A DNA stretch of 64,000 nucleotides from Squalus acanthias (Eukaryota). The stretch is from positions 51,832,001 to 51,896,000 of the forward strand of contig CM059444.1 of assembly GCA_030390025.1 (NCBI GenBank), read 5' to 3'. A program made the position numbers and the translations under genes. Of the stretch, positions 3,561 through 57,897 are shown piece by piece. The notes beneath the pieces are model-generated. The model saw only the letters and a program-made list of their open reading frames with translations, searched no databases and was not told the origin of the DNA. How positions within the stretch are numbered: position 1 is the first letter of the stretch; each line of letters opens with the position of its first letter.

Positions 3561-4539
3561 GGGACACTGCAAGTTTTATGGAGGCACTGCTACCTTCAAG
3601 AAGTCAAAAGAGTTGCCTTGCCTACCAAGTGGAGGCCTATCAATACAAATTGGAAGCCAGACTACCATCTCGTATGCTCAAGTGAACTCGCTTTTCTCGT
3701 TACAGATGCTGACTGACCTGCTGCATATTTCCAACATCTTCTGTTTTTATTTCAGATTTCCAGCATTTGCAGGTTATTTTTCTTTTTATCTCATATCACC
3801 ACCATCAGTATTTCTCCTTCACTTACTGCGGCTGCTTCCTCCGTAACTTGTGCATTGAAACAAAAACAGTGGGAGAAAGTTCAAAAGAAAAACTGTGTTT
3901 GCACAAACGTGCTTTTAAATTGTTTTTATATTTTAGCGCAGTGGTACTGGAAGTGGCCATTGTGGTAGGAGAAGCAGGGAACTTGCTGGAGGCAAGAGGG
4001 TGAACAAGGTAGGGACGAGCCTGAACTTTTCCTAATGGAGTTTATCATTAGGTCACTTATTGTCTGTGCCTTGGTTTACTAGCCCAGTGAAATGGTTTGC
4101 AAGAGGCCCTTTACCAGATGACACCGCCCTTTAATAGTGCGGTGATAAATATTTCTACAGAATTACCAACTGGTCTCATCCAGCCACGTGAACTCAAGAG
4201 GCAGGGTTCCAGCATCTGCCCCCACTTCTCAGTGGCTGAAAAGCTCAAAGCCCCTGGTGTTCCTCCCCGAAATGAGGGTGAGGTTATATCAAAGCAAGCA
4301 AATCAGTGCAATACCCACGCTAAGTCACATTTCAGAACCACTGCTGTAAGGAGCCATCTTCCACTGCTGCACACTGAACATTATCCGTAACGCAAGTAGC
4401 AACCGCTGGAAACACTCAGCAGGTCGGGCAGCATTTGTGGAGAGAACAGATGAGTTAATGCTTCAGGTGTGGAGACTTTGTCTGAATTAGAGGATATTAC
4501 AAATTAACGACTTTGAAAAAGGAACAGAACAAAGGGAAG

Positions 4540-6520: not shown

Positions 6521-7381
6521 AATGAATCATGGTTAACATGGACTAATATTCAACAGAAAACAATCAGAAAAGAAAAAAGGTAAACTAAAGCACTATGGAG
6601 CAAAGCACTAAAAGTGAAGGGCTTGTGAATGGTAATTTTTTTTTAACTGTCTGACAATTCATTGGATAGAAAGATAGTTGCTTGTATTTACCGTCAAACT
6701 AAGTTCCAGCATCACAGAAATACTCTTCACAATAATTGTCTAGAATTTTCGGTGAGGCTAATGGCGTTCGCCGTTGTAATATATGTGGGCAGAACAAATG
6801 AAGGACAGAAACAACAACAGAAAATGCTGGAAAAACTCAGCAGGCCAGGCAACATCCGTGGAGAGAGAAACAGAGTCAACGTTTCAGGTCGAAGACCCTT
6901 CGTCAGAACTGAGAAAAAAGCAGGAAATGAAACAGATAAAAAAGCAAGGGGGAGGCTGGGGGGAGGAATAAAAGAACAAAAGGGGTGGTCAATGGTAAGT
7001 AGAGACGTTAAGAGATGCTCAAGGCAAGACGAGATGGTAATAGGACAGGTTAAGAAACAAAAGGTGGCTCAGAAGTGTGAAGTGTGAAATGCTGGCAGAA
7101 TGAAAGACAGCTGCCGTGGGGGAGAGAGAGAAAAAAAAGGGAAAAGGCACAAACCAATAGGGTGGATAAAATATATATATATATATATATATATCTAAGT
7201 GGTAGGGGCTGAGGTTATGATCTGAAATTGTTGAACTCGATATTGAGTCCGGAAGGTTGTAAAGTGCCTAATCGGAAGATGAGGTGCTGTTCCTCGAGCT
7301 TACACTGAGCTTCCGTGGAACAATGCAAGAGGCCGAGGACGGTGAGGTCTGAGTGGGCGTGGAGCGGTGAATTAAAATGAC

Positions 7382-8842
7382 TTATCCAGTCTCTTCCCAC
7401 CTACATCCGCGACTCCTCTGACGCCCTCCGCCACTTTAACAGTTTCCAGTTTCCTTGCCCCAACCGCCTCCTTTTCACCATGGACGTACAATCCCTCTAC
7501 ACCTCCATCCCCCACCAGGATGGCCTGAGGGCGCTTCGCTTCTTCCTTGAACAGAGGCCCAACCAGTCCCCATCCACCGCCACCCTCCTCCGCCTGGCTG
7601 AACTTGTTCTCACATTGAACAACTTCTGCTTTGACTCCACTCATTTCCTCCAAATCAAAGGTGTTGCTATGGGTACCCGCATGGGTCCTAGCTATGCCTG
7701 CCTTTTCGTGGGATATGTGGAACACTCTTTGTTCCAGTCCTACTCAGGTCCCCTCCCTCACCTCTTTTTCCGGTACATTGATGACTGTATCGGTGCCGTC
7801 TCCTGCTCTCGCCCTGAACTAGACAATTTCATTCACTTTGCCTCCAATTTCCACCCTTCCCTCACCTTCACATGGTCTATCTCCGACTCTTCCCTTCCCT
7901 TCCTCGACTTCTCCGTCTCCATCTCTGGGGATAGGTTATTGACCAACATTCACTACAAGCCCACTGACTCCCACAGCTACCTGGACTACACTTCCTCCCA
8001 CCCCACCTCCTGTAAGGACTCTATTCCCTTCTCCCAGTTTCTCCGTCTCCACCGCATCTGCTCTGACGATGCCACCTTCCATACCAGTGCTTCCGACATG
8101 TCTTCCTTTTTCCTCTACCGAGGATTCCCCTCTACCGTGGTCGACACGGCCCTCGACCGTGTCCGTTCTATCTCCCGCACTTCTGCCCTCACCCCGGCCC
8201 CTCCCTCCCGGAACCACGATAGAGTTCCCCTTGTCCTCACCTTTCACCCCACCAGCCTCCACATTCAACGGATCATCCTCCGCCATTTCCGCCACCTCCA
8301 ACGTGATCCCACCACCAAATGTATCTTCCCCTCACCTCCCCTTTCAGCATTCCGTAGGGACCGCTCCCTCCGAGACACCCTAGTCCACTCCTCTATCACC
8401 CCCAGCACCCCTTCCCCCTCGCCCGGCACCTTCCCGTGCAAGCGCAGGAGATGCAACACCTGCCCTTATACATCCCCCCTTCCCACTCTCCAGGGCCCCA
8501 AACACCCCTTCCAGGTGAAACAGCGATTTACTTGTACTTCTTGCAATTTAGTATACTGTATTCGCTGCTCACGATGTGGTCTCCTCTACATTGGGGAGAC
8601 CAAACGCAGATTGGGTGACCGCTTTGCGGAACACCTCTGTTCAGTCCGTAAGCGAAACCCCGAGCTCCGGTCGCCTGTCATTTTAATTCACCGCTCCACG
8701 CCCACTCAGACCTCACTGTCCTCGGCCTCTTGCATTGTTCCACGGAAGCTCAGCGTAAGCTCGAGGAACAGCACCTCATCTTCCGATTAGGCACTTTACA
8801 ACCTTCCGGACTCAATATCGAGTTCAACAATTTCAGATCATA
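7382..8842 (+). pseudogene. Penelope RT plus GIY-YIG endonuclease (N-truncated, frameshift near 8670)
   Basis: DVQSLYTSIP, GVAMGTRMGPSYA, RYIDD, CKRRRCNTC, VYCIRCSRCGLLYIGET. Confidence 0.93.
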
Positions 8843-9140
8843 ACCTCGGCCCCTACCACTTAGATATATATATATATATATATTATCCACCCTATTGGTT
8901 TGTGCCTTTTCCCTTTTTTTTCTCTCTCTCCCCCACAGCAGCTGTCTCTCATTCTGCCAGCATTTCACACTTCACACTTCTGAGCCATCTTTTGTTTCTT
9001 AACCTGTCCTATTACCATCTCGTCTTGCCTTGAGCATCTCTTAATGTCTCTACTTACCATAGACCACCCCTTTTGTTCTTTTATTCCTCCCCCCAGCCTC
9101 CCACTTGCTTTTTTATCTGTTTCATTTCCTGCTTTTTTCT

Positions 9141-9179
9141 CAGTTCTGACGAAGGGTCTTCGACCTGAAACGTTAACTC
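9141..9179 (+). ncRNA. Minimal type I hammerhead ribozyme motif in the Penelope pLTR
   Basis: AGTT-CTGACGA-A-GGGTC TTC GACCT-GAAA-CGTT-AACT; mirror copy on the - strand at 6873-6911. Confidence 0.75.
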
Positions 9180-9929
9180 TGTTTCTCTCTCCACGGATGT
9201 TGCCTGGCCTGCTGAGTTTTTCCAGCATTTTCTGTTGTTGTTTCAATTTTCCAGCATCCGCAGTATTTTGCTATCGTATAAATGAAGGACAGAGACAGGA
9301 TGAGTTGCTAGTCAAGGCCAGAGCGAATTGAGCATGCTCATACTAAACCATGTGACAATGCATTACACTGCTTTCCCCTTAAGATAAAGTGTATGTATTC
9401 CCCTCTCAAATACAACAATACTATGGTCCCACCTTTCCCAGCATTACATGTACCACATAACAAAAACTCCTGGCTTTTTTTCTTTTAAATCAACTACAAA
9501 TGAACTACAAATCCAGTTTAATAACAGGTTTGTGGAGCCTTCCTGATCTTCTTATAAAAGGTGTTGGTGTTGAACCAAATTTCGGGCTGTTTTGTATTGG
9601 TTCCGAACTCAAAGAAGTAGGTACCACCACTCTCTTTCCCCACTTGATACAATCTTGCTCACAAGACAATTCAGTACGACGGCTATGAAATGGTTTCAAC
9701 TCTGTGTCCAGACACTGATCAGTCCATCCATTCAAGCTGTTTTCAGTACTGAGTCCTTTTGAGTCTCAGTTGCATTCACAGGAAAGTCTTTGTCAACGGC
9801 ACCTAGCGTGAAAATCGCACCTTCACTCCCAACACGAGTCTTCATGTGGCAACCTGGACAAGGCATCTGCGATTGCGTTTTGCTTTGAAGTGCGATATTG
9901 AATCATGTCATATTGTGACAACAACACTG

Positions 9930-14323: not shown

Positions 14324-14965
14324 AGAGGCTCCAAAATTCCTCGCCATTTTTGGCATATCTGCAGCCTACAATTGGCGCAACTGTATTTTTGAGACCTGGA
14401 AAATTGGCTGGAAGTCATTTCTGCTGGTTTTCCGCCTCCAAAATCAATACACCCGAGTTTGTAATTACAATTTGGCCCTTCCTGCAATCCACCCACTGAG
14501 CCCCCACAGAGCTGATTTATATAAATTAAAATGAAGGTCATTGACGCTGTAGTTGCAGAAGTTACGCTCCCAATCCATGGTGAGTAACTCAGAACAGGAT
14601 TCATCAGGAGGACCTGTGACAGCTGAGACTGCCAGAAATGAGGGACTTTTGAGCCTGAAGAATGCAGAAACTTCGACTATTTGTTACTGGGACCGAGAAA
14701 ATTTGAGAGCAATTTTCATTTTGCTTTTCACCTAGACATCCCGAGACTTGCTTCTGACTGCACGTGGGACTGTGAGACCCTGAGATATTTTTACCCCCAC
14801 CAACTAGATGGCTGAATGTTTTCCCCTCTCTTATGTAGCTGCTGATAATTTGCGACTCGTTCGCAGGCCAGTAGCGCAGTACCCCGCCCCATCTGTTCTG
14901 GCAGCAGAATTTCTACATGCCAATTGTACTTTTCCACCAGAATTCGGGTAGAAATTTGAACCTCA
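14324..14965. mobile_element. Harbinger-like MITE
   Basis: Imperfect TIRs gaggctccaaaattcc / gaaatttgaacctc. Confidence 0.45.
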
Positions 14966-18370: not shown

Positions 18371-18752
18371 TGTAATAATCAGTGTAGTATTATTATATAA
18401 ATGCAAGTTCTTTCTTTCTAGTAATATCCTAAATCGAATGATTTAGATAGTTTAATTCATGATAATAAGAGAGAGAATGTATTATCTACATTAACAATGA
18501 ACATCAAGCCAGTCAGGTTCCAGATTCAGGCTAACCCTACAACCTCAGTTTGTCAATCAAGTGATTCACCAAAACCTCTCGAAAATGGGTAAGCATGGAT
18601 TCCTAGCAACTCTGTGGCACCACAGGCCGATGTGCCAGTAAGATATGGATTTGTGACAGCGATGCACCACATGGTAAGGTCCCAATTTTGTCCAGGTCAT
18701 GGGGAGGGGGGAGGAAGCAGCTCAGTCGAGCTTGTTTCCTTATCCACAAGGA

Positions 18753-19164
18753 TGTGGAGATGCCGGTGTTGGACTGGGGTGGACAAATGTGAGAAGTCGC
18801 ACAACACCAGGTTATAGTCCAACAGCTTTATTTGAAATCACAAGCTTTCGGAGCGCTGCTCCTTCGTCAGGTGAAGTGAAGAGATGCATATAGGCACAGC
18901 ATATATAGTCAGAGAACACTGCCAGATGATTACAGTTAATCTTTCCAACTGCCCTTTATCACACCTCGGCAGAGAGATAATCACGGCAATCAAAGGTGTG
19001 GATGGTGTCCCAACAGGTCAGTCAGGAAAACATTACATGACTATATATGCTGTGCCTATATGCATCTCTTCACTTCACCTGACGAAGGAGCAGCGCTCCG
19101 AAAGCTTGTGATTTCAAATAAAGCTGTTGGACTATAACCTGGTGTTGTGCGACTTCTCACATTT
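18753..19164. mobile_element. Fold-back Penelope mini-element, pLTR family B
   Basis: 127-bp inverted arms 18785-18911 / 19038-19164; TSD tatccacaagga (18741-18752, 19164-19175). Confidence 0.9.
19074..19112 (+). ncRNA. Minimal hammerhead ribozyme motif
   Basis: TCAC-CTGACGA-A-GGAGC AGC GCTCC-GAAA-GCTT-GTGA; mirror copy on the - strand at about 18837-18875. Confidence 0.8.
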
Positions 19165-20136
19165 ATCCACAAGGAAGGAGAGAAAAATCAGTAAGTGAGG
19201 CGCCATGAGCCTCTGTCCAGCAGGCAGCAGGTGCCTACATGTCCTCTCGGCTGGATGGTGCTGTGTGGGCCAAAAGGAAGGGAAGCGATTAAAGAAAGAC
19301 AATAAGGATGCTTACCGACTTGGCAATTAACTGTTGCTTCAGGTAGCAATAGTCCAAGAGACCAGATCAATGCATCCTGAAATAATCATATTTCAATAGC
19401 ACAATAGAGATAAGAAACAAAATATTGAAATAATGGACAAAATAAAACTTACACCAGATAAAGGTAAAACCTCAAAACCGTAACATAGATAAATAAATAT
19501 GTAATTGATAGGCTATAGTAAAGACTAATTAAGCAAAAGATTAATTTTAAAAGTAACATGCTGGCTGTGGATTTTATTGGTAGCACAATGTTTAATTCAA
19601 GTTTAGCTGATTTCAAGCTTCGCTGATCTAGCCGGTAATGTAATTTTAAACATAATTTTTGCACATCATTTCATTCACTAGAATTAGCCAATTACAGCTA
19701 ATTAATCCCATTTGCTCAGACATATCACTAAGCTAGCATTCAGACTGTGGTGGGAGCACAAAGGATGACTTCTGGTTGGTAATGGCTTTCTTCCTTGTTT
19801 TCGTGAGACAGTGCATGATGCTGCGTGCTTCGAAAAGGTGTACTCAAAAGTTCATCACATTCACAGAGTTGTCTTACAGTGTTCCCTACCTGATGTCATC
19901 AAAAGTTGTGCACATTCACAGCAAGGTGATGGAGCTTAAGAGATACAGACCGTTTTGTAAAGACTGACTGTTAAGCCAGGCAGAGGAACAACATTATTGG
20001 TAAAGGAAGACATAACAGCTCTTAAAAAGGTGACCATCAGTGAAGGAGATGGCAGAAGCAATATGTGTGGTAAGTAGTAATGGTAAGGGAAACAAAGTCA
20101 TATTTTAATTGTCAGTTGCTATTAACTTTCAGCATA

Positions 20137-20717: not shown

Positions 20718-21232
20718 GACAATAGCAAAATACTGCGGATGCTGGAAAACTGAAATAACAACAGAAAGCGCTGGAAAAACTCAGCAGGCCAGGCAACATC
20801 CGTGGAGAGAGAAACAGAGTTAATGTTTCAGGTCGAAGACCCTTCATCAGAACTGAGAAAGAAGCAGGAAATGAAACAGATGAAGTTGGAGGCTGGGGGA
20901 AGGAATAAAAGAACAAAAGGGGAGGTCCCCTGAGATATCTGCGCTCCTCTAATTCTGGCCTCTTGAACATCCCTGATTTGAATCGCTCCACCATCGGTGG
21001 CCGTACCTTCAGCTGCCTCGGCCCTAAGCTCTGGAATTCCCTCCCTAAACCTCTCCGCCTCTCTACCCCTCTTTCCTCCTTTAAGATGCTCCTTAAAACC
21101 TCCCCTTTTGTTCTTTTATTCCTTCCCCCAGCCTCCAACTTCACCTGTTTCATTTCCTGCTTTTTTCTCAGTTCTGACGAAGGATCTTCGACCTGAAATG
21201 TTAACTCTGTTTCTCTCTCCACGGATGTTGCC
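20718..21232. mobile_element. Fold-back Penelope mini-element, family A, with an L2-derived spacer
   Basis: Inverted arms about 20791-20926 / 21098-21232; TSD a(c/t)gtaaagagg; hammerhead cores at about 20820-20855 (-) and 21170-21207 (+). Confidence 0.85.
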
Positions 21233-21323
21233 ATGTAAAGAGGCAAAATGGGTTAGGACACTATCCTTTCACCCCTGGGTTCTTGGTCTGTCTAAAAGTC
21301 AAATTTAACCTACCACAGGACTT

Positions 21324-24300
21324 TGTGGCGGATCGCCACCTAAACGGGCGCAATCCACTTTTCCGTCCGTGGACAATAAATCGGGCACCTTGCCTTTAAG
21401 GCACCTTGCCTTTAAGGCAGGAGAAAAGGAGTGGGCGGGGCCTCTGGGTTTTTGTGAGAGAAATGTGGCTGCAGCCATTTTGACCAGAGTTGTGATTAAA
21501 AGCTATGTGTTTCACATGTTGACTCGGCCTCAATTTGTGCTCTGCAGCAGCCACAACATTGGTGACCCCGCCGCTCAGAACGTATTCCGAGCACTGCAAT
21601 GGCGGACACGAACGCAGTTTCCGTGAAACTGCCGGAGTTTTGGGAAAACCAGCCCGAAGCCTGATTTCTCCAAGCCGAGTCCCGATTCCGGCTGCAACAA
21701 ATCACCACAGATGGGACGAAGTACGACTACCTCGTCACATCACTCAGTAGCTCCACAGTTACGAAGGTCTGGACAGCGCTGCAGAACCCACCAGAGGGGG
21801 GCAAGTATGCACATCTTAAGGCCGCGTTCCTTAAAAATTTACGGCCTTGACATACCAGCGAAACTGCCACCTCCTCGACCTTCCAGGCCTCGGTGATGCC
21901 TCACCGTCAGACCTCCTCTCCCACATGCTCTCCCTCACCGACGAGAGCCCACCCGGATCCCTCTTCCACACGCTGTTCATCCGCCAGCTACCTCTCAGCA
22001 TCCGCCCAGCGATCGTGGCGTCTGGCCTCACGGACCTGGAAGCCCTGGCCGATGAGGCCGACAAGCTGCTGTCCGCTCACTCCAGCCGCGACGTCACTCC
22101 GGACCTGGCAGTCACTGCCTGGGCGCGCCCCTCACCGGCCACCACGCGGCCACAAGGCCCAGCCACCGGGCTCACGGGGCCTTCGCGCCCCACTAACCCG
22201 GGCCACTGTTACTACCACGCACGGTTCGGCGCCAGGGCACAACGGTGCACACCTCCCTGCTCTTTCAAGCCCGCCCCCGTACCAGCTCCCGCGATGGCCG
22301 TGGGCCACGCGGGCTCCCTGCTGTACGTCACGGATGACAAAATCGGCCGCCGGTTCCTGTGCGACACTGGGGCTCAGCACAGCATCATCCCGGCCTCCTC
22401 CCTCGACATCCAAAAGGGCGAACGAGGACCGGCGCTGGCTGCTGCTAACGGCTCGGACATCCCGACGTACGGCACCCGCACAGTCACCCTCGACCTCGCT
22501 GGTCGCCGCTACCGATGGGAGTTCATCACTGTCAAGGTGCTCTCCCCTCTCATCGGCGCGGATTTCCTGTGCGCCCACGGCCTACTGGTAGACATCCCTC
22601 GTCACCGCCTCGTGGACATGAACACCATGTCCCCCATCCTGGGCGCCATGGCCCCCCGTCAACCCGCCGACATGGCGTCACAGTGCCACGCCCAGGCCAC
22701 GGATGACTACTCGGCACTCCTGGCCGAATTCCCGGCCCTTACCAATCTGACCTTCTCCGCGGAGGCCGCCAAACACGGGGTGGAACACTTCATCCCCACC
22801 ACAGGCCCCCCAGTGTACGCCCACGCCCGCAGGCTGGACCCGGCCAAACTGGAGATCGCGCGGACCGAGTTTGCCACCATGGAACAGCTCGGCATCATCC
22901 GCCGCTCCAACAGTCCCTGGGCCTCCCCACTCCACATCGCCCCCAAACCAGGCGGGGGTTGGCGCCCCTGCGGGGATTACCACCGCCTCAACGACGCCAC
23001 CACCCCTGATCGGTACCCCGTGCCGCACATCCAGGACTGGTCGGCCGCTCAGTCTTTTCCAAGGTCGACCTGGTGCGCGGCTACCACCAAGTCCCCGTCC
23101 ACCCCGCGGACATCCCCAAGACGGCCGTAATCACCCCCTTCGGCCTGTTCGAGTTCCTGCGGATGCCCTTCGGCCTCAAAAACGTGGCCCAGGCATTCCA
23201 ATGGCTCATGGACTCGGTCCTTCGGGACCTGAAGTTCCTGTTCGTCTACCTGGACGACATCCTGGTAGCCAGTTCCTCCAAGCAGGAACACCTCGAACAC
23301 CTTCGCATCCTGTTCGGGCGCCTCAGCGACCATGGGCTCATCCTCAGCCCAGCCAAATGCCAGTTCGGCCTGGACAAGATCGACTTCCTCGGCCACCACA
23401 TCACCCATGCTGGGGCCATTCCCCTGCCCACCAAGGTGCAGGCCGTCCAACAATTTCCCCGCCCCACCACCATCAAAGGCCTCCAGGAGTTCCTCGGGAT
23501 GGTGAATTTCTATAACCGCTTCATCCCCAAAGCGGTGTCCCTCATGAGGCCCCTGTATGAAGCCCTCCGGGGCAGGAGCGGCAAGATGGCGGTCGAATGG
23601 ACGGCAGACGCGTCAGCCGCCTTCGACTCCACCAAGACCGCGCTCGCCAACGCCACCCTGCTCGCGCACCCACGGCCCAATGCCAGGGTAGCGCTCACCA
23701 CGGACGCCTCCGACCATGCGGTCGGCGCCGTGTATGAGCAGTGGGTCGACGGCGCCTGGCAACCACTTGCCTTCTTCAGCCGCCAACTACGCCCCCCGGA
23801 GGTCAAGTACTGCACCTTCAACCGCGAGCTCCTCGCGCTGTTCCTGGCGGTCCGCCATTTTCGGTTTTTGCTGGAGGGCCACCCCTTCACTGCGTTTGTC
23901 GACCACAAACCCCTGACATTCGCAATGGCAAAGACAACCGACCCCTGGTCCGCCAGGCAGCAGCGCCAGCTCGCGGCAGTGTCCGAGTTCACCACGAACA
24001 TCCAACACGTCTCCTGCCGAGACAATGTGGTAGCCGACTGCCTCTCCCGCCCCGCCATCCACGCTGCACACCTGGCAGTCGACTACGCTCAACTCGCAGC
24101 AGACCAGATCACCGACCCTGATCTGCTCTCCGCACCTACCAACCTACCAGGGCTACGCCTGGCCGACGTCGCCTGGGGCCCGACCGCAGTCACGGTCAAG
24201 TGCGACATATCCCTATGTCAACCTCGGCCCGTCGTCCCAGCGTCCTGGCGCCGCCGGGTATTCGAGATTCTTCACAACCTCTCCCACCCCGGCGCCCGCG

Positions 24301-25652
24301 CATCCATCAAATTGGTAGCCAACCGCTTTGTCTGGCGCGGCCTTCGCAAGGATGTGCGTACTTGGGCCAACCCCTGCCTAGCCTGCCAACGGGCCAAGGT
24401 GCAGCAACACACGAAAGCACCCCTCGAGGAGTTTACCGTCCCTTCGCGTAGATTCGACCACATCCACGTGGACATCGTCGGGCCCCTGCTGCCGTCGCAA
24501 GGCCACACGCACTTGCTGACGATCGTTGACCGCACCACGCGCTGGCCCAAGGCAATTCCACTGACCTCTACCACCACCGCCGACATCGCCAGAGCCTTCG
24601 TCAGCACCTGGGTCGCATGGTTCGGCGTCCCCTCCGACATGACGTCGGACAGAGGTCCGCAATTTACCTCTGAACTCTGGACCGCCGTCGCATGCAATCT
24701 CGGGGTGACCATTCACCGCACCACAGCGTACCACCCCCAAGCCAACGGACTGTGTGAGCGGTTCCACAGATCCTTGAAGGCATCTCTTCGAGCCAGCCTC
24801 CAGGACGGCATCTGGACCGACCGACTCCCGTGGGTCCTCCGCGGCCTGCGTACCGCGGTTAAAGAAGACATCCACGCATCGGCAGCAGAGCTCGTGTACG
24901 GCCAGCCGCTGCGCATACCCAGCGAGTTCCTGCCCACCGCCACGACACCCTGGTCAGCCGACCAGCAACGCCACGACTTCGCCTCACCGGCGCTACAGTT
25001 CGCCCCAATGCCCATTGCCCGACACGGCGAATCCACCTCACACGTCCCACTAAGCCTGCACCAGGCACGGTTCATTTTCGTCCGGCACGACGACCACCGC
25101 GGACCCCTTCAACCCCCGTACGACGGGCCCTACAAGGTGCTACAGGCTGGGGACAAATTTTTCACCCTGCAAGTGGGCGACAGGACCGAAAAAGTGTCGG
25201 TTGATCGACTCAAGCCAGCACACTCGGAGCCCGGTGAGCAGGTCCTTGTAGCTCGTCCACCGCCACGCGGCCGACCTGCCCTCAAGCCGGTTCACCCGGC
25301 TGCTCCACGCCCGGCCGTTCCACGTCCACTGGCGTCCTACAAGAGCCACTCCGGCCGGCCCATCAGACCGCCGCACCGTCTCGTCCACACCTCCTAAGCG
25401 GATTCTGGGGGGAGCTGTGTGGCGGATCGCCACCTAAACGGGCGCAATCCATTTTTCCGTCCGTGGACAATAAATCGGGCACCTTGCCTTTAAGGCACCT
25501 TGCCTTTAAGGCAGGAGAAAAGGAGTGGGCGGGGCCTCTGGGTTTTTGTGAGAGAAATTTGGCTGCAGCCATTTTGACCAGAGTTGTGATTAAAAGCTAT
25601 GTGTTTCACATGTTGACTCGGCCTCAATTCGTGCTCCGCGGCAGCCACAACA
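21324..25652 (+). mobile_element. Gypsy LTR retrotransposon, CsRn1/Kabuki-like, near full length
   Basis: 235-bp LTRs 21324-21558 / 25418-25652 (about 5 mismatches); 4-bp TSD ACTT; PBS TGGTGACCCCG (tRNA-Trp); G-rich PPT. Confidence 0.95.
21599..25397 (+). pseudogene. gag-pol with a few frameshifts and stops
   Basis: AVSVKLPEFW; CHCC motif CYYHARFGARAQRCTPPC; CDTGA; YLDD; [10 protein letters not shown]; HHCC plus DDE integrase; GPY/F (YDGPYKV). Confidence 0.93.
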
Positions 25653-26671
25653 ACTTCAAACTTTAACTTCAGACTCTCTCATATCATCTCCTCCCTGTTC
25701 TCTGTTTATGACAAGGGCATATCTCTCCTAATCTCTGCCATGCTTATGTAACCTGAATTCCCTCTGTGTCCATTTGTGTGCACGTTTTGGCTGCCCCTCT
25801 GAGCTTATTACTTCTAATTTCCTTTTTTTCCCTTGGCTGCCTTGTTTCCCTATAGTACACGTCAAAAGTACTTCATTGGCTTTAAAGTGCTTTGGAACAT
25901 CCTGAGGTTGTGAAATGGAAGTCCGTTCCTTTTCTTTCATATTGCTTAATTAAATATATTGTGTAAAGGAATTTTCTCCAATGTCAGGTTGAGATGTTAC
26001 AGGGCATACACTCCCAGAAGACCTTAAAACACTCCCTACCAGGGCTGCCCTGCCATAAGCGCAAACCACTTAAGAATTTTAGATGCAGAACTGATCATCC
26101 AGCAAGTCAGGCAATTAGACTGTGAAACTAGGGCTTGATGTAATGATTGGGACTTCTTCAACAAGGGATCCGACTGAAATTCAGTTTAAGTAAAGACATA
26201 TTAATGCACTGTAAACATCTCCTGTACTGTGGCCAGCTCCCCGATCAGGCTAGAATATGCAACAAAGACTGAGGCAGTGGATAATTTTTCACCATTTTTA
26301 CTGTTACCCAGAGGGAGATGAAGATTTTTCTTTGACTGAGTTGTAAATATGAACTGAGCGAAAATTATTGGGATGGTTTTTAATCGATTACTTTAATTGA
26401 ATTGATTTATGATTGTAATTGTTGATTATCTATACTTTTATAGTTTTCTAAATTTCTAATCAATAAATCTCTGTGTTTTATTAGGTCATTGCTTGTCTAC
26501 CCGTGTATCGATAATTATCAGAGGATTTTATATTTTACTGTTTCTGACTGAGATGGGCCCCTCTGTTTTTTTCAACTCCGCTGGTTTCTGCAGGCTAAAT
26601 AGGATCTGTGGTTGAGTGGGCTGGTGGCAAGCTGTATGCAGGCCTCTGCTAATGTCACCCTCAGTCCTCCT

Positions 26672-43295: not shown

Positions 43296-45068
43296 TTACA
43301 CCATTCTCATAAGAGTGGCTGAGGGATCTCCTGTGAGAAGCTCCTCATCCTCCTTTCTTTCATGGTTTGCCACGGCGCCAATCTTGGCTTTACCTAATCT
43401 AGTGCAGAGGCATTTGAGCAGCAAGAGTACACAGTATATTGTAATAACAATCACGAGGAATATCATTATGCCTTGTACCACTGAGGCGCCCAACGTCCCC
43501 AACCATCCTGATCCCCAATCACCAAAATAGGAAGAGGTGGGGGAGTTTCTAGTTTTTCTTGCCTGTTCTTGTATGTGGGTTGCAAGGTTCTCAATCTCTT
43601 CTGAATCATCTGGAATGTAAGTGCAGCATGTTGGTCCTATTATGGCACACGTCCCTCCTTCCTTTGCTAATAGATAATCTAGGGCTATCCGGTTCTGCAT
43701 TGCGACAGTACGTACAGCTACCAATTCTTCATTTATTGATCTGGCCATCCCGACCATATCATTGGCTACTTGTTCCAATAATGTATTTAATTGGTCCGTT
43801 TCTAAAATGGTTCTATGTACCCCATAGAAAGGCCACATTATGGCCATAACCTTTTCCCAGGTTTGCACCGCCCGTTTGCTCCTGCCCATTGGAACCCCTT
43901 GTTGGGCGTCGGTTAGGGTTTTGTGGTGGGTTACATATGGCTGTACATTGCCGAGGTAACATGATCCTCTCCAGTTGGATGGCAGCCAGGGGTACGCCCT
44001 TTCACCGCATATAAAATACGTGCCATTATAGGCACATGTCCGGGATTCGTCCGTTACCCACAGTATGATAGTGTTCCCTTCCGTGCCATTATCAAGGGGA
44101 CAAAAATGAGAAGTCGCACAACACCAGGTTATAGTCCAACAGTTTTATTTGAAATTACGAGCTTTTGGAGCTCTGCTCCTTCGTCAGGTACAGTGAGGGA
44201 ATACAAATCGGTTACAAAGTATATATAGACAGAGAACAATGTGTCTGCGTTTGACACGTTGGACCCCCTGTGACCCACCTCATTGTCTTAGCTGTACTCT
44301 GCTGTGTCTTTGATGTAATGCCTCCCTGACGGATTGTATCTCTGCAGACACATTGTTCTCTGTCTAAATATACTTTGTAACCGATTTGTATTCCCTCACT
44401 GTACCTGATGAAGGAGCAGAGCTCCAAAAGCTCGTAATTTCAAATAAAACTGTTGGACTATAACCTGGTGTTGTGCGACTTCTCATTTTTGTCCACCCCA
44501 GTCCAACACCGGCATCTCCGCATTATTATCAAGGGGGACAGTTAGATACGTTGCGGTGAACACTGGCCCGTCTTGGGCTCGTGTCATACTGACATTTTGG
44601 CAACATTTACTGCGTCCCATATCCCTTCCCGCTCCTTCCCTTGTTATACAAATTATTCCTTCCACTTTTTCCTTGAGGGTCAAAAATGGAGGTTCCTGTG
44701 TGTTAGTGTACTTGGGAAGATACCACCCTCTGAACCGATCTGGGTCATACCCTGCTGCCTCCCATTGCTTCTTCACCTGGCTTGTATCCTCCCCCTTGCT
44801 ATTGATACCGTTATCATTTCCGGTGTTATTTTGATTAAGAAACCAGGATGCCATTTCCGAGTAATTAAAAGGCACGGGTTTCACCGGAATTCCTTCCTCG
44901 GAATTTGTCGGGGCTCCGGAGCAGACCCAACAGCTAGAGAGGTTCAGCTGACTCGCATATTTCCATGACATATACAAGTAACTATTTCCTGTAGTTTTAG
45001 GCATCCTTTCTACATTATGGAGTACGCCTAGGCCTATAAGGCCATATGTAAGCAGATACTTGATCATC
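43296..45068 (-). pseudogene. env: Gamma-type retroviral envelope interrupted by the Penelope hairpin at 44103-44524
   Basis: Signal peptide MIKYLLTYGLIGLG; CWVC; YFICG...WRGSCYLG; furin site RSKR; ISD MQNRIALDYLLAKEGG; CX6CC; TM helix. Confidence 0.92.
44103..44524. mobile_element. Fold-back Penelope mini-element, family B
   Basis: Inverted arms about 44098-44248 / 44344-44494; TSD attatcaagggg(g)aca; termini match 18753-19164. Confidence 0.9.
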
Positions 45069-56164: not shown

Positions 56165-57897
56165 CAAAATTCTATAGATTATGGAACAGTTCCTGCACAT
56201 TGGAGGGTGGCAAATGTAACCACACTATTTAAAAAAGGAGGGAGAGAGAAAACAGGGAACTACAGACCGGTTAGCCTAACATCAGTAGTAGGGAAAATGC
56301 TAGAGTCTATTATAAAGGCTGTGATAACAGGGCACTTAGAAAATATCAACGGGATTGGACAAAGTCAACATGGATTTATGAAAGGGAAATCGTGTTTGAC
56401 AAACCTACTGGAGTTTTTTGAGGATGTAACTGGTAGAATAGATAAGGGAGAACCAGTGGATGTGGTGTATTTGGATTTTCAGAAAGCCTTTGATAAAGTC
56501 CCAAATAAGAGGTTAGTGTGCAAAATTAAAGCACATGGGATTGGGGGTAATATACTGGCATGGATTGAAAATTGGTTAACAGACAGGAAACAGAGAGTAG
56601 GAATAAATGGGTCTATTTCGGGGTGGCAGGCGGTGACTAGTGGGGTATCGCAGGGATCAGTGCTTGGGCCCCAGCTATTCACAATATATATCAATGATTT
56701 GGATGAGGCAACCAAATGTAATATTTCCAAGTTTGCTGACAACACGAAACTAGGTGGGATTGTAAGTTGTGAGGAGGATGCAAAGAGGCTTCAAGGTGAT
56801 TTAGACAAGTTGAGTGAGTGGGAAAATACATGGCAGATGCAGTATAACGTGGATAAATGTGAAGTTATCCACTTCGGTAGAAAAAACAGAAAGGCAGAGT
56901 ATTATTTAAATGGTGATAGATTGGGAAATGTTGATGTATAGAGGGACCTGGGTGTCCTTGTACACCAGTCACTGAAAGCAAACATGCAGGTGCAGCAAGC
57001 AGTTAGGAAGGCAAATGGTATACAAAAGCAAAATACTGCGGATGCTGGAAATCTGAAATTAAAACAGAAAATGCTGGAAATACTCAGCAGGTCAGGCAGC
57101 ATCTGTGGAGAGAGAAATAGAGTTAACATTTCAGGTTGATGTTCTGACGAACAGTCATCGACCTGAAATGTTAACTCTGTTTCTCTCTCCACAGATGCTG
57201 CCTGACCTGCTGAGTATTTCCAGCATTTTCTGTTTTTATGGCAAATGGTATGTTGACCTTCATTGCAAGAGGATTTGAGTACAGGAGCAAGGATGTCTTA
57301 CTACAGTTATACAGAGCCTTGGTGAGACCACACCTGGAGTACTGTGTGCAGTTTTGGTCTCCTTACCTAAGAAAGGATATACTTGCCATAGAGGGAGTGC
57401 AGCGAAGGTTCACCAGACTGATTCCTGGGATGGCAGGACTGTCGTATGAGGAGAGATTGGGTCGACTAGGCCTGAATTCATTAGAGTTTAGAAGAATGAG
57501 AGGAGATCTCATTGAAACGTATAAAATTCTGACAAGGCTAGACAGACTGGATGCAGGGAGGATGTTTCCCCTGGCTGGGGGGGGGGGGGTCTAGAACAAG
57601 GGGTCACAGTCTCAGGATACGGGGTAGGACATTTAGGACTGAGATGAGGAGAAATTTCTTCACTCAGAGGGTGGTGAACCTGTGAAATTCTCTACCACAG
57701 AAGGCTGTGGAAGCCAAGTCACTGAATATATTTAAGAAGGAGATAGATAGATTTCTGGACACAAATGGCATCAAGGGGTGTGGGGAGAGAGCGGGAATAT
57801 GGTATTGAGATAGAGGATCAGCCATGATCATATTGAATGGTGGAGCAGGCTCGAAGGGCCGAATGGCCTACTCCTGCTCCTATTTTTCTATGTTTCT
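56165..57897 (+). mobile_element. CR1 RT and 3' end, split by a Penelope hairpin
   Basis: ORFs 56207-56941 and 57238-57594; tail ttctatgtttcta. Confidence 0.93.
57022..57239. mobile_element. Fold-back Penelope mini-element, family A
   Basis: 12-bp TSD ggcaaatggtat (57010-57021, 57240-57251); one hammerhead core CTGACGA...GAAA at 57144-57168. Confidence 0.9.

Follow-up and report, generated by a model that had tools for sequence, protein, structure and literature searches.

A hammerhead-bearing hairpin in Squalus acanthias is most probably a one-off, head-to-head insertion of Penelope-like element ends

Introduction

The window analysed here is a 64,000-nt stretch of the Squalus acanthias genome (assembly GCA_030390025.1, contig CM059444.1, positions 51,832,001 to 51,896,000), and it contains a non-coding fold-back element with a hammerhead motif on each strand. 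Such an element raises the question of whether it belongs to a non-autonomous family that spreads as a ribozyme hairpin, or is one of the repeated products of inversion by a Penelope-like element (PLE), the two alternatives offered in the original prediction from the letters alone. Our answer, to which we give a probability of about 0.9, is that it is a one-off non-coding PLE insertion, in which two truncated ends lie head to head within a TSD, likely made by reverse transcription primed from both cut strands.

Results

Structure of the fold-back element

The element spans positions 18753-19164 of the window. By direct sequence comparison, its two arms (18785-18911 and 19038-19164) are complementary at 127 of 127 nt; they are separated by a spacer of 126 nt (18912-19037), and the left arm alone is extended by 32 nt (18753-18784), dimensions that had all been predicted correctly. 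The longest direct repeat at the flanks is 13 bp (18740-18752 and 19163-19175 on the + strand), and since 1-2 bases at either end fit the element too, the TSD is 12-13 bp long, a range that includes the 12 bp first proposed. The predicted RNA fold of the element reached -281 kcal/mol (z -27), and none of 100 shuffled sequences was equally stable.

The motif CTGACGA-A-GGAGC-AGC-GCTCC-GAAA-GCTT is present at 19079 (+) and 18870 (-), which agrees with the predicted core on each strand with AAGCTT in place of stem III. On the + strand, the minimal type I hammerhead covers 19075-19111, with stem I TCAC/GTGA, the core from 19079 with an extra A, stem II at 19087-19099, GAAA and the palindromic AGCT; its predicted cut lies between 19107 and 19108, after U rather than C or A. 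The hammerhead of the tailed arm (18838-18874, - strand, core from 18870) is its mirror. The motif has the CUGANGA and GAAA core, stems I and II and the palindromic helix III remnant of minimal type I hammerheads. Stems I and II form in the fold of the monomer, and stem I changes from C-G to U-A between subfamilies (among 316 fetched arms whose core is complete, a non-independent sample, 214 have TCAC/GTGA and 63 xTAC/GTAA), which, as judged from sequence and predicted folding, identifies the motif as a real minimal hammerhead of the parental element described below. An Rfam search at E up to 1 did not report the hammerheads of this element, and a PDB search returned no match.

Parent element

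The element matches the 3′ end of an intact copy, L255, with 98.6% identity over 286 nt, and its tail-less arm with 99.2% over 127 nt. A genome search with the element found many copies that match its positions 1-286 and then diverge in their continuation, the arms are 96-99% identical to ordinary family members, and in two copies, L017 and L031, RT and GIY-YIG are encoded upstream of the same end. Since copies reaching further lead into an RT/GIY-YIG ORF and L255 is nearly identical, the element consists of two joined parental ends with an overlap of 1-3 nt. The first comprises the final 288 nt of the parent on the - strand (18753-19040; d288..d1 counted from the parental end; 3′ UTR/pseudo-LTR), 97% identical to L031, and the second repeats nt 159-33 from the end in inverted orientation (19038-19164, + strand, 127 nt); both are 5′-truncated, and they meet head to head at 19038-19040. 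The spacer is therefore merely the extra length of the longer arm, that is, more of the parental 3′ region, lying upstream of the start of the shorter arm on the - strand. The 32-nt tail, found on the longer copy only, reaches the ATG of the ORF in tandem copies: it adjoins the ATG in 11 of 30 loci with the 5′ end of the ORF, and a twelfth has an insertion after the tail.

L255 consists of an inverted pseudo-LTR (pLTR), a direct pLTR, an intact 891-aa ORF and a tailed 3′ pLTR. Its ORF matches Pfam RVT_1 at E 1e-8. GIY-YIG was found on L017 at E 0.005, under Pfam's cut-off, and was not reported by Pfam for L255; the motif VVY..WYIGET is present in the sequence, and the Atlas neighbours are RT/GIY-YIG clusters at 0.98. 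Between RT and EN, L017 and L255 both have the linker CHGNLCKTC, which is of the CX2-5CxxC type given as a Neptune feature in the accessible part of PMC8557442. The Nematis linker is similar, and the linker sequence here fits the Neptune/Nematis type. With a single ORF of RT and C-terminal GIY-YIG, direct and inverted pLTRs, an optional tail of 30-40 bp and a pLTR hammerhead, the parent has the features of EN+ PLEs, and we conclude that it is an RT + GIY-YIG PLE. The link first drawn to the minimal hammerheads of Penelope pLTRs was thus right, as the parent carries such hammerheads.

Head-to-head copies and their junctions

Exact matches to the 32-mer of the hammerhead occur at 14,765 places in the genome, and those to a 30-nt anchor downstream of the cut site at 70,956. 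In contrast, the 25-mer over the junction of the element had 1 match at up to 1 mismatch in the whole 3.7-Gb genome, and among the 30 best-matching loci the junction coordinates of all 29 others differ from those of the element (L005 and L006, two of these loci, represent a single duplicated locus). Around the first 100 anchor places (contig C1, 0-5.5 Mb) we found 119 arms, of which 3 were removed as local duplications. Of the remaining 116, 88 form 44 head-to-head pairs, exactly one arm is tailed in 42 of the 44, and the commonest TSD length is 12 bp. Two hammerhead cores lie head to head within 30 nt at 3,632 places genome-wide, and much longer copies, L031 and L014, have the same layout with tailed arms of ~2,650 nt and 1,521 nt. 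The head-to-head layout with one tailed arm is the standard product of this family, and together with the parent and the unique junction it supports the second of the original alternatives, repeated products of Penelope inversion. The almost complete head-to-head copy L031 (G000:C3334:133531-136280) is itself located within a long tandem array with a period of ~29 bp.

Some junctions are shared in the family. One 10-nt junction is found in 529 dispersed copies genome-wide and marks a breakpoint hotspot. It was rejected as the mark of one hairpin family, because the copies carry mixed subfamily markers (30 copies compared), and an apparent plus-strand bias of the same junction was gone genome-wide (265 forward, 264 reverse). 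Polishing artefact was likewise rejected as the source of the short hotspot junctions, since contigs of two public runs (X1 and X5) carry such joints. The depth of the joints in the X1 contigs ranged from some hundreds to 1,600, against ~14 for the flanks, although X1 may be the sample of the assembly itself and library chimeras are a possible source of this depth. X1 contigs cover both flanks of 18753-19164 into the arms, and none of the contig pieces listed for the public runs bridges the whole hairpin. Two public runs guessed to be RNA had zero depth on the flanks of the hairpin, which has no firm bearing on expression.

Formation of the hairpin

The parent, the coordinates of both arms within it, the TSD, the unique junction and the layout as the normal product of the family are direct observations, from which we infer the following course. 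The protein of the element would prime reverse transcription from both cut target strands, with one cDNA starting at the tail site and the other ~32 nt further in; these would stop after 288 and 127 nt, respectively, and then join at their 3′ ends via 1-3 nt of microhomology. A PLE protein from anole cuts and extends both target strands in vitro, and two RT start sites bound the tail (PMC11167929, in the part available). Comparison of the arms gives no demonstration that both derive from one RNA molecule, as the two arms of a locus resembled each other more than they did the best other locus in only 12 of 30 pairs, whereas 4 pairs were tied and 14 did not show this.

The second arm could also arise by snap-back, with the first cDNA folding on itself, self-priming and being copied back, so that the second priming only closes the far end. 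Self-priming was proposed for PLEs, and snap-back after full-length cDNA was reported for R2 proteins (accessible parts of PMC3846280 and PMC11371274, respectively). The junction of the 529 dispersed copies could be primed by a terminal extra C, and in 30 copies of the commonest junction the tail is on the full-length (G-ACTTCAC) arm in 24, on the other arm in 5 and on neither in 1, a bias that fits snap-back at least as well as two cDNAs. However, the end of the tail-less arm is narrowly confined, falling 0-12 nt beyond the anchor in 63 of 116 arms, as expected for a defined second RT start, some junctions have the extra base on both arms (L284), and the element itself would need a 126-nt loop held by pairing of 1-3 nt. 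We consider snap-back a serious though less probable origin of the second arm, and prefer priming from both cut strands.

Breakpoints at a predicted capped RNA start

In the sample of 116 arms, 12 start 7 nt upstream of the hammerhead core, compared to 0.63 per position nearby (P 4e-12); the breakpoints were placed by extension alignment against 42 long arms, and microhomology may move them by a few bases. The base at this peak is the A of an Inr-like TCACTTC, and in the subfamily of the element a TATA-like box begins 30 nt before it; such a box is present in 41 of 45 long arms, 37-43 nt ahead of the core. In the tail-less arm of our element, the predicted promoter comprises TATATAT at 19042-19048 (+) and TCACTTC at 19070-19076 (+) with the putative transcription start at A 19072, where the family has its breakpoint peak, and in the tailed arm it comprises a TATA-like box at 18901-18907 (-) and the Inr A at 18877. 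According to the text available for PMC3846280, the rotifer Pen2a pLTR has a TATA box and an Inr-like TCACT, while the D. virilis Penelope promoter is TATA-less and internal (PMC2377424, also in part).

Where the base before the peak A is not the templated C, it was G in 56, T in 29 and A in 15 of the first 100 of 4,648 matches (hand count), whereas one base further in G made up 20 of the first 100 of 2,713 (Fisher P 2e-7). T was templated by another subfamily in 8 of 12 T cases inspected, with three T loci lying outside these 12. The partner arm could supply the extra G in many junctions, but not at L176, L284 and L285. For L1, a cap-derived extra G at full-length 5′ ends is described in the accessible part of PMC11702581. 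None of 12 upstream pLTRs of long copies started at -7, a weak result as ~1 was expected.

These patterns suggest that an uncleaved, capped RNA is likely copied to its end, and the peak and the extra G together point to a sense, capped template, contrary to the antisense template proposed by Arkhipova 2013 (PMC3846280, as far as its available text goes). Since the tail adjoins the ATG in tandem copies, the stretch from start to ATG is probably a 5′ leader, and the parental end would probably be promoter plus leader, in the order TATA, Inr, hammerhead, tail and ATG. The capped RNA would start 7 nt before the hammerhead; the many short relatives, with the smallest hairpins among them, would be run-off copies of the uncleaved leader carrying a cap-derived G. 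Both arms of our element extend past the predicted start, so its template would be a longer read-through RNA, and each arm keeps a predicted promoter facing outward.

The interval +27..+31, which takes in 2 nt to either side of the predicted cut site, contains the start of a single arm among the 116, where 3.1 were expected, and because of this we conclude that the copied RNA was mostly uncleaved. The hammerheads would thus be passengers of the pLTR, copied from uncleaved RNA; hammerhead cleavage was dispensable for the anole PLE (PMC11167929, in part).

The sibling and local sharing of junctions

A second fold-back in the window, at 44100-44524 (+), consists of a tail-less arm (d180..d30, - strand) and a tailed arm (d277..d1, + strand), with 12-bp TSDs at 44088-44099 and 44525-44536. 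It has the termini of 18753-19164 in opposite orientation, as had been noted before, and its arms of 151 nt are 99% identical to each other; compared with the arms of 18753-19164 they show 83-85%, and so belong to another subfamily. The hammerheads that had also been ascribed to its two strands are not both intact, since both of its cores read AAAA for GAAA; among the tailed arms of its subfamily, 24 of 29 have retained GAAA. This change is of the CpG type and is found in 2 of 21 family copies. Its presence in both arms suggests homogenisation between the arms or a mutant source.

The exact junction of the sibling, with arms at 277 and 180 nt from the end and a base absent in 21 family copies, recurs in L043 (G000:C20:56473882-56474306), 4.6 Mb away on the same contig, with a different TSD and the tail on the opposite arm; it was not seen in other loci among 318 fetched. 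Two other junctions were counted across the whole genome. One, missing most of one hammerhead core, has 4 copies (L221-L224), all at C1:12.2-14.6 Mb and thus no more than 2.4 Mb apart, which differ in their TSDs and subfamily markers; the other has 3 copies, all at C1:3.43-3.98 Mb, two of which are one local duplication. A further same-junction pair 100 kb apart has its tails on opposite arms. By chance, a second copy would be placed within 5 Mb 0.27% of the time. Among 31 sampled hairpins there were 6 identical-junction pairs, 4 of them near the hotspot, compared to 1.05 in shuffles (P 0.001).

We give about even odds to ectopic templated copying of hairpin centres as the cause of this local sharing. 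The centre of a hairpin would be copied at the DNA level into a neighbour 0.1-5 Mb away on the same chromosome, either when a new insertion uses a resident copy close by for its completion or during repair of a broken palindrome centre, and the sibling and L043 would be one such pair. An assembly artefact is a less probable explanation; the sibling and L043 differ by 8 substitutions and 2 indels over ~395 columns, two of these in the spacer, which speaks against simple duplication by the assembly. Re-insertion of a hairpin RNA nearby is less probable still. The arms of L043, and likewise those of C1:3966875, carry unlike subfamily markers, and this favours centre copying at the DNA level over retrotransposition of a hairpin RNA, though weakly, as 6 of 27 sampled pairs show such differences too. 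Taken jointly, a pLTR TATA/Inr promoter giving run-off hairpins with a cap-derived G, and copying of hairpin centres between neighbours at the DNA level, form a tentative picture that we hold at somewhat below even odds.

Propagation as a hairpin and function in the host

The original prediction took identical spacer junctions as the sign of propagation as a hairpin. By this measure our element stands alone, while elsewhere in the family identical junctions do recur, in the hotspot and in local clusters, and neither kind of recurrence shows descent from one hairpin master. Membership of the element in a non-autonomous family whose entire hairpin is transcribed and retrotransposed is therefore very unlikely. 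The 529 copies of one junction, the excess of identical-junction pairs over shuffles and the sharing between the sibling and L043 despite different TSDs would be in line with such a family, and the swap of the tail between the latter two would be possible if a hairpin RNA were copied from two start sites. However, the common junction sits in mixed subfamily backgrounds, the shared junctions outside the hotspot are local and not dispersed, and the unlike arms of L043 and C1:3966875 are unexpected for a copy of one hairpin RNA. For the element itself, the unique junction 25-mer refutes this origin in this assembly, and the spacer is parental, so that the first of the original alternatives fails. 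A MITE-like family, with many dispersed copies of one junction and shared descent, was not what we found.

Pairing of the ribozyme with the antisense arm is predicted at -88.8 kcal/mol, compared to -11.6 for its own fold. In read-through RNA, whichever strand is transcribed, the antisense arm precedes the ribozyme and is predicted to trap it, and cleavage would not be expected in such a hairpin RNA. The earlier statement that RNA from either strand carries one ribozyme plus its antisense copy thus applies to read-through RNA only, with the ribozyme there predicted to be sequestered. If read through, the 127-bp perfect duplex would be a substrate for Dicer or ADAR. Retention of the hairpin as a functional host RNA, be it a ribozyme switch, a small-RNA precursor or an editing substrate, would suit this duplex and the covariation of stem I, but is highly improbable, as the covariation belongs to the mobile parent, neither arm of the sibling has an intact core, the ribozyme is predicted to pair with the antisense arm, and arms so close to ordinary family members give no sign of locus-specific constraint.

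Other repeats in the window

A second hammerhead-bearing PLE family is present as a 2.4-kb head-to-head insertion at 6808-9244. Its arms measure ~570 nt, its cores lie at 6906 (-) and 9146 (+), and the fragment of RT/EN that it contains (7363-8816) shares 34% identity with the L255 protein. Shorter fold-backs of this family lie at 20719-21232, interrupted by another repeat, and at 57040-57260, with cores at 20850, 21174 and 57144. Positions 57104-57193 in the latter hairpin gave weak Rfam miRNA matches, and a miRNA was rejected there because the scores were below gathering and the sequence comes from another PLE hairpin. GC content is 58-65% at 22001-26000 against a background of 40-48%, possibly a CpG island, and a direct repeat of 238 nt occurs at 21321 and 25415.

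Discussion

The element is an ordinary Penelope insertion of the published pattern. In the accessible parts of PMC8557442 and PMC3846280, EN+ PLE insertions consist of a 5′-truncated copy with an inverted 5′-truncated copy at its 5′ end, and a tail of 30-40 bp is present on one end only. The inverted-pLTR insertions of Craig et al. 2021 and Arkhipova et al. 2013 share truncation, one-sided tail and TSD with those described here, and differ, as far as these texts were available, in that both copies here retain just the non-coding ends, with arms in the tens of thousands. PMC4209133 describes pairs of minimal hammerheads, one on each strand and 100-700 bp from each other, and its available text gives the same extra base between 9 and 10.1, a palindromic 15.2-16.2 and no helix III. 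The subfamily of our element has U at the cleavage position where other subfamilies have C, and its activity is predicted.

The closest experimental system is Poseidon of Anolis (Frangieh et al. 2024, PMC11167929, in part), in which, as proposed here, both strands are cut and extended, RT has two starts and the main template is uncleaved. In contrast, the Poseidon ORF starts inside the hammerhead, while here the ATG follows the core by ~120 nt and comes directly behind the tail; the protein here has a Cys linker of the Neptune/Nematis type. Non-LTR retrozymes (Li et al. 2026, bioRxiv 10.64898/2026.07.22.740005, in excerpt) are also non-coding, derived from PLE pLTRs and equipped with a type I hammerhead; they are head-to-tail tandems of at least 2 consecutive units with a ribozyme each, whereas our element is a single head-to-head pair. 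The 5′ inversion of L1 by twin priming (PMC11702581, in part) shares two primings, a retained TSD and inner microhomology with our proposal, but L1 inversions copy adjacent parts of the RNA, and both arms here copy the same part. In the literature searched, which held few subscription papers and no Repbase Reports or supplements, we found no description of a cap-derived G or of junction sharing in PLEs, and a prior description is possible.

The element alone matters little, as dead Penelope stumps of this kind number in the tens of thousands. The origin of head-to-head pLTRs and the cutting of PLE hammerheads in vivo are open questions in the available parts of PMC8557442, PMC4209133 and PMC11167929, and this family supplies thousands of junctions for them. 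If the local sharing of junctions is true, palindromes of retroelements would swap their centres with neighbours, and identical junctions would be no proof of a non-autonomous family.
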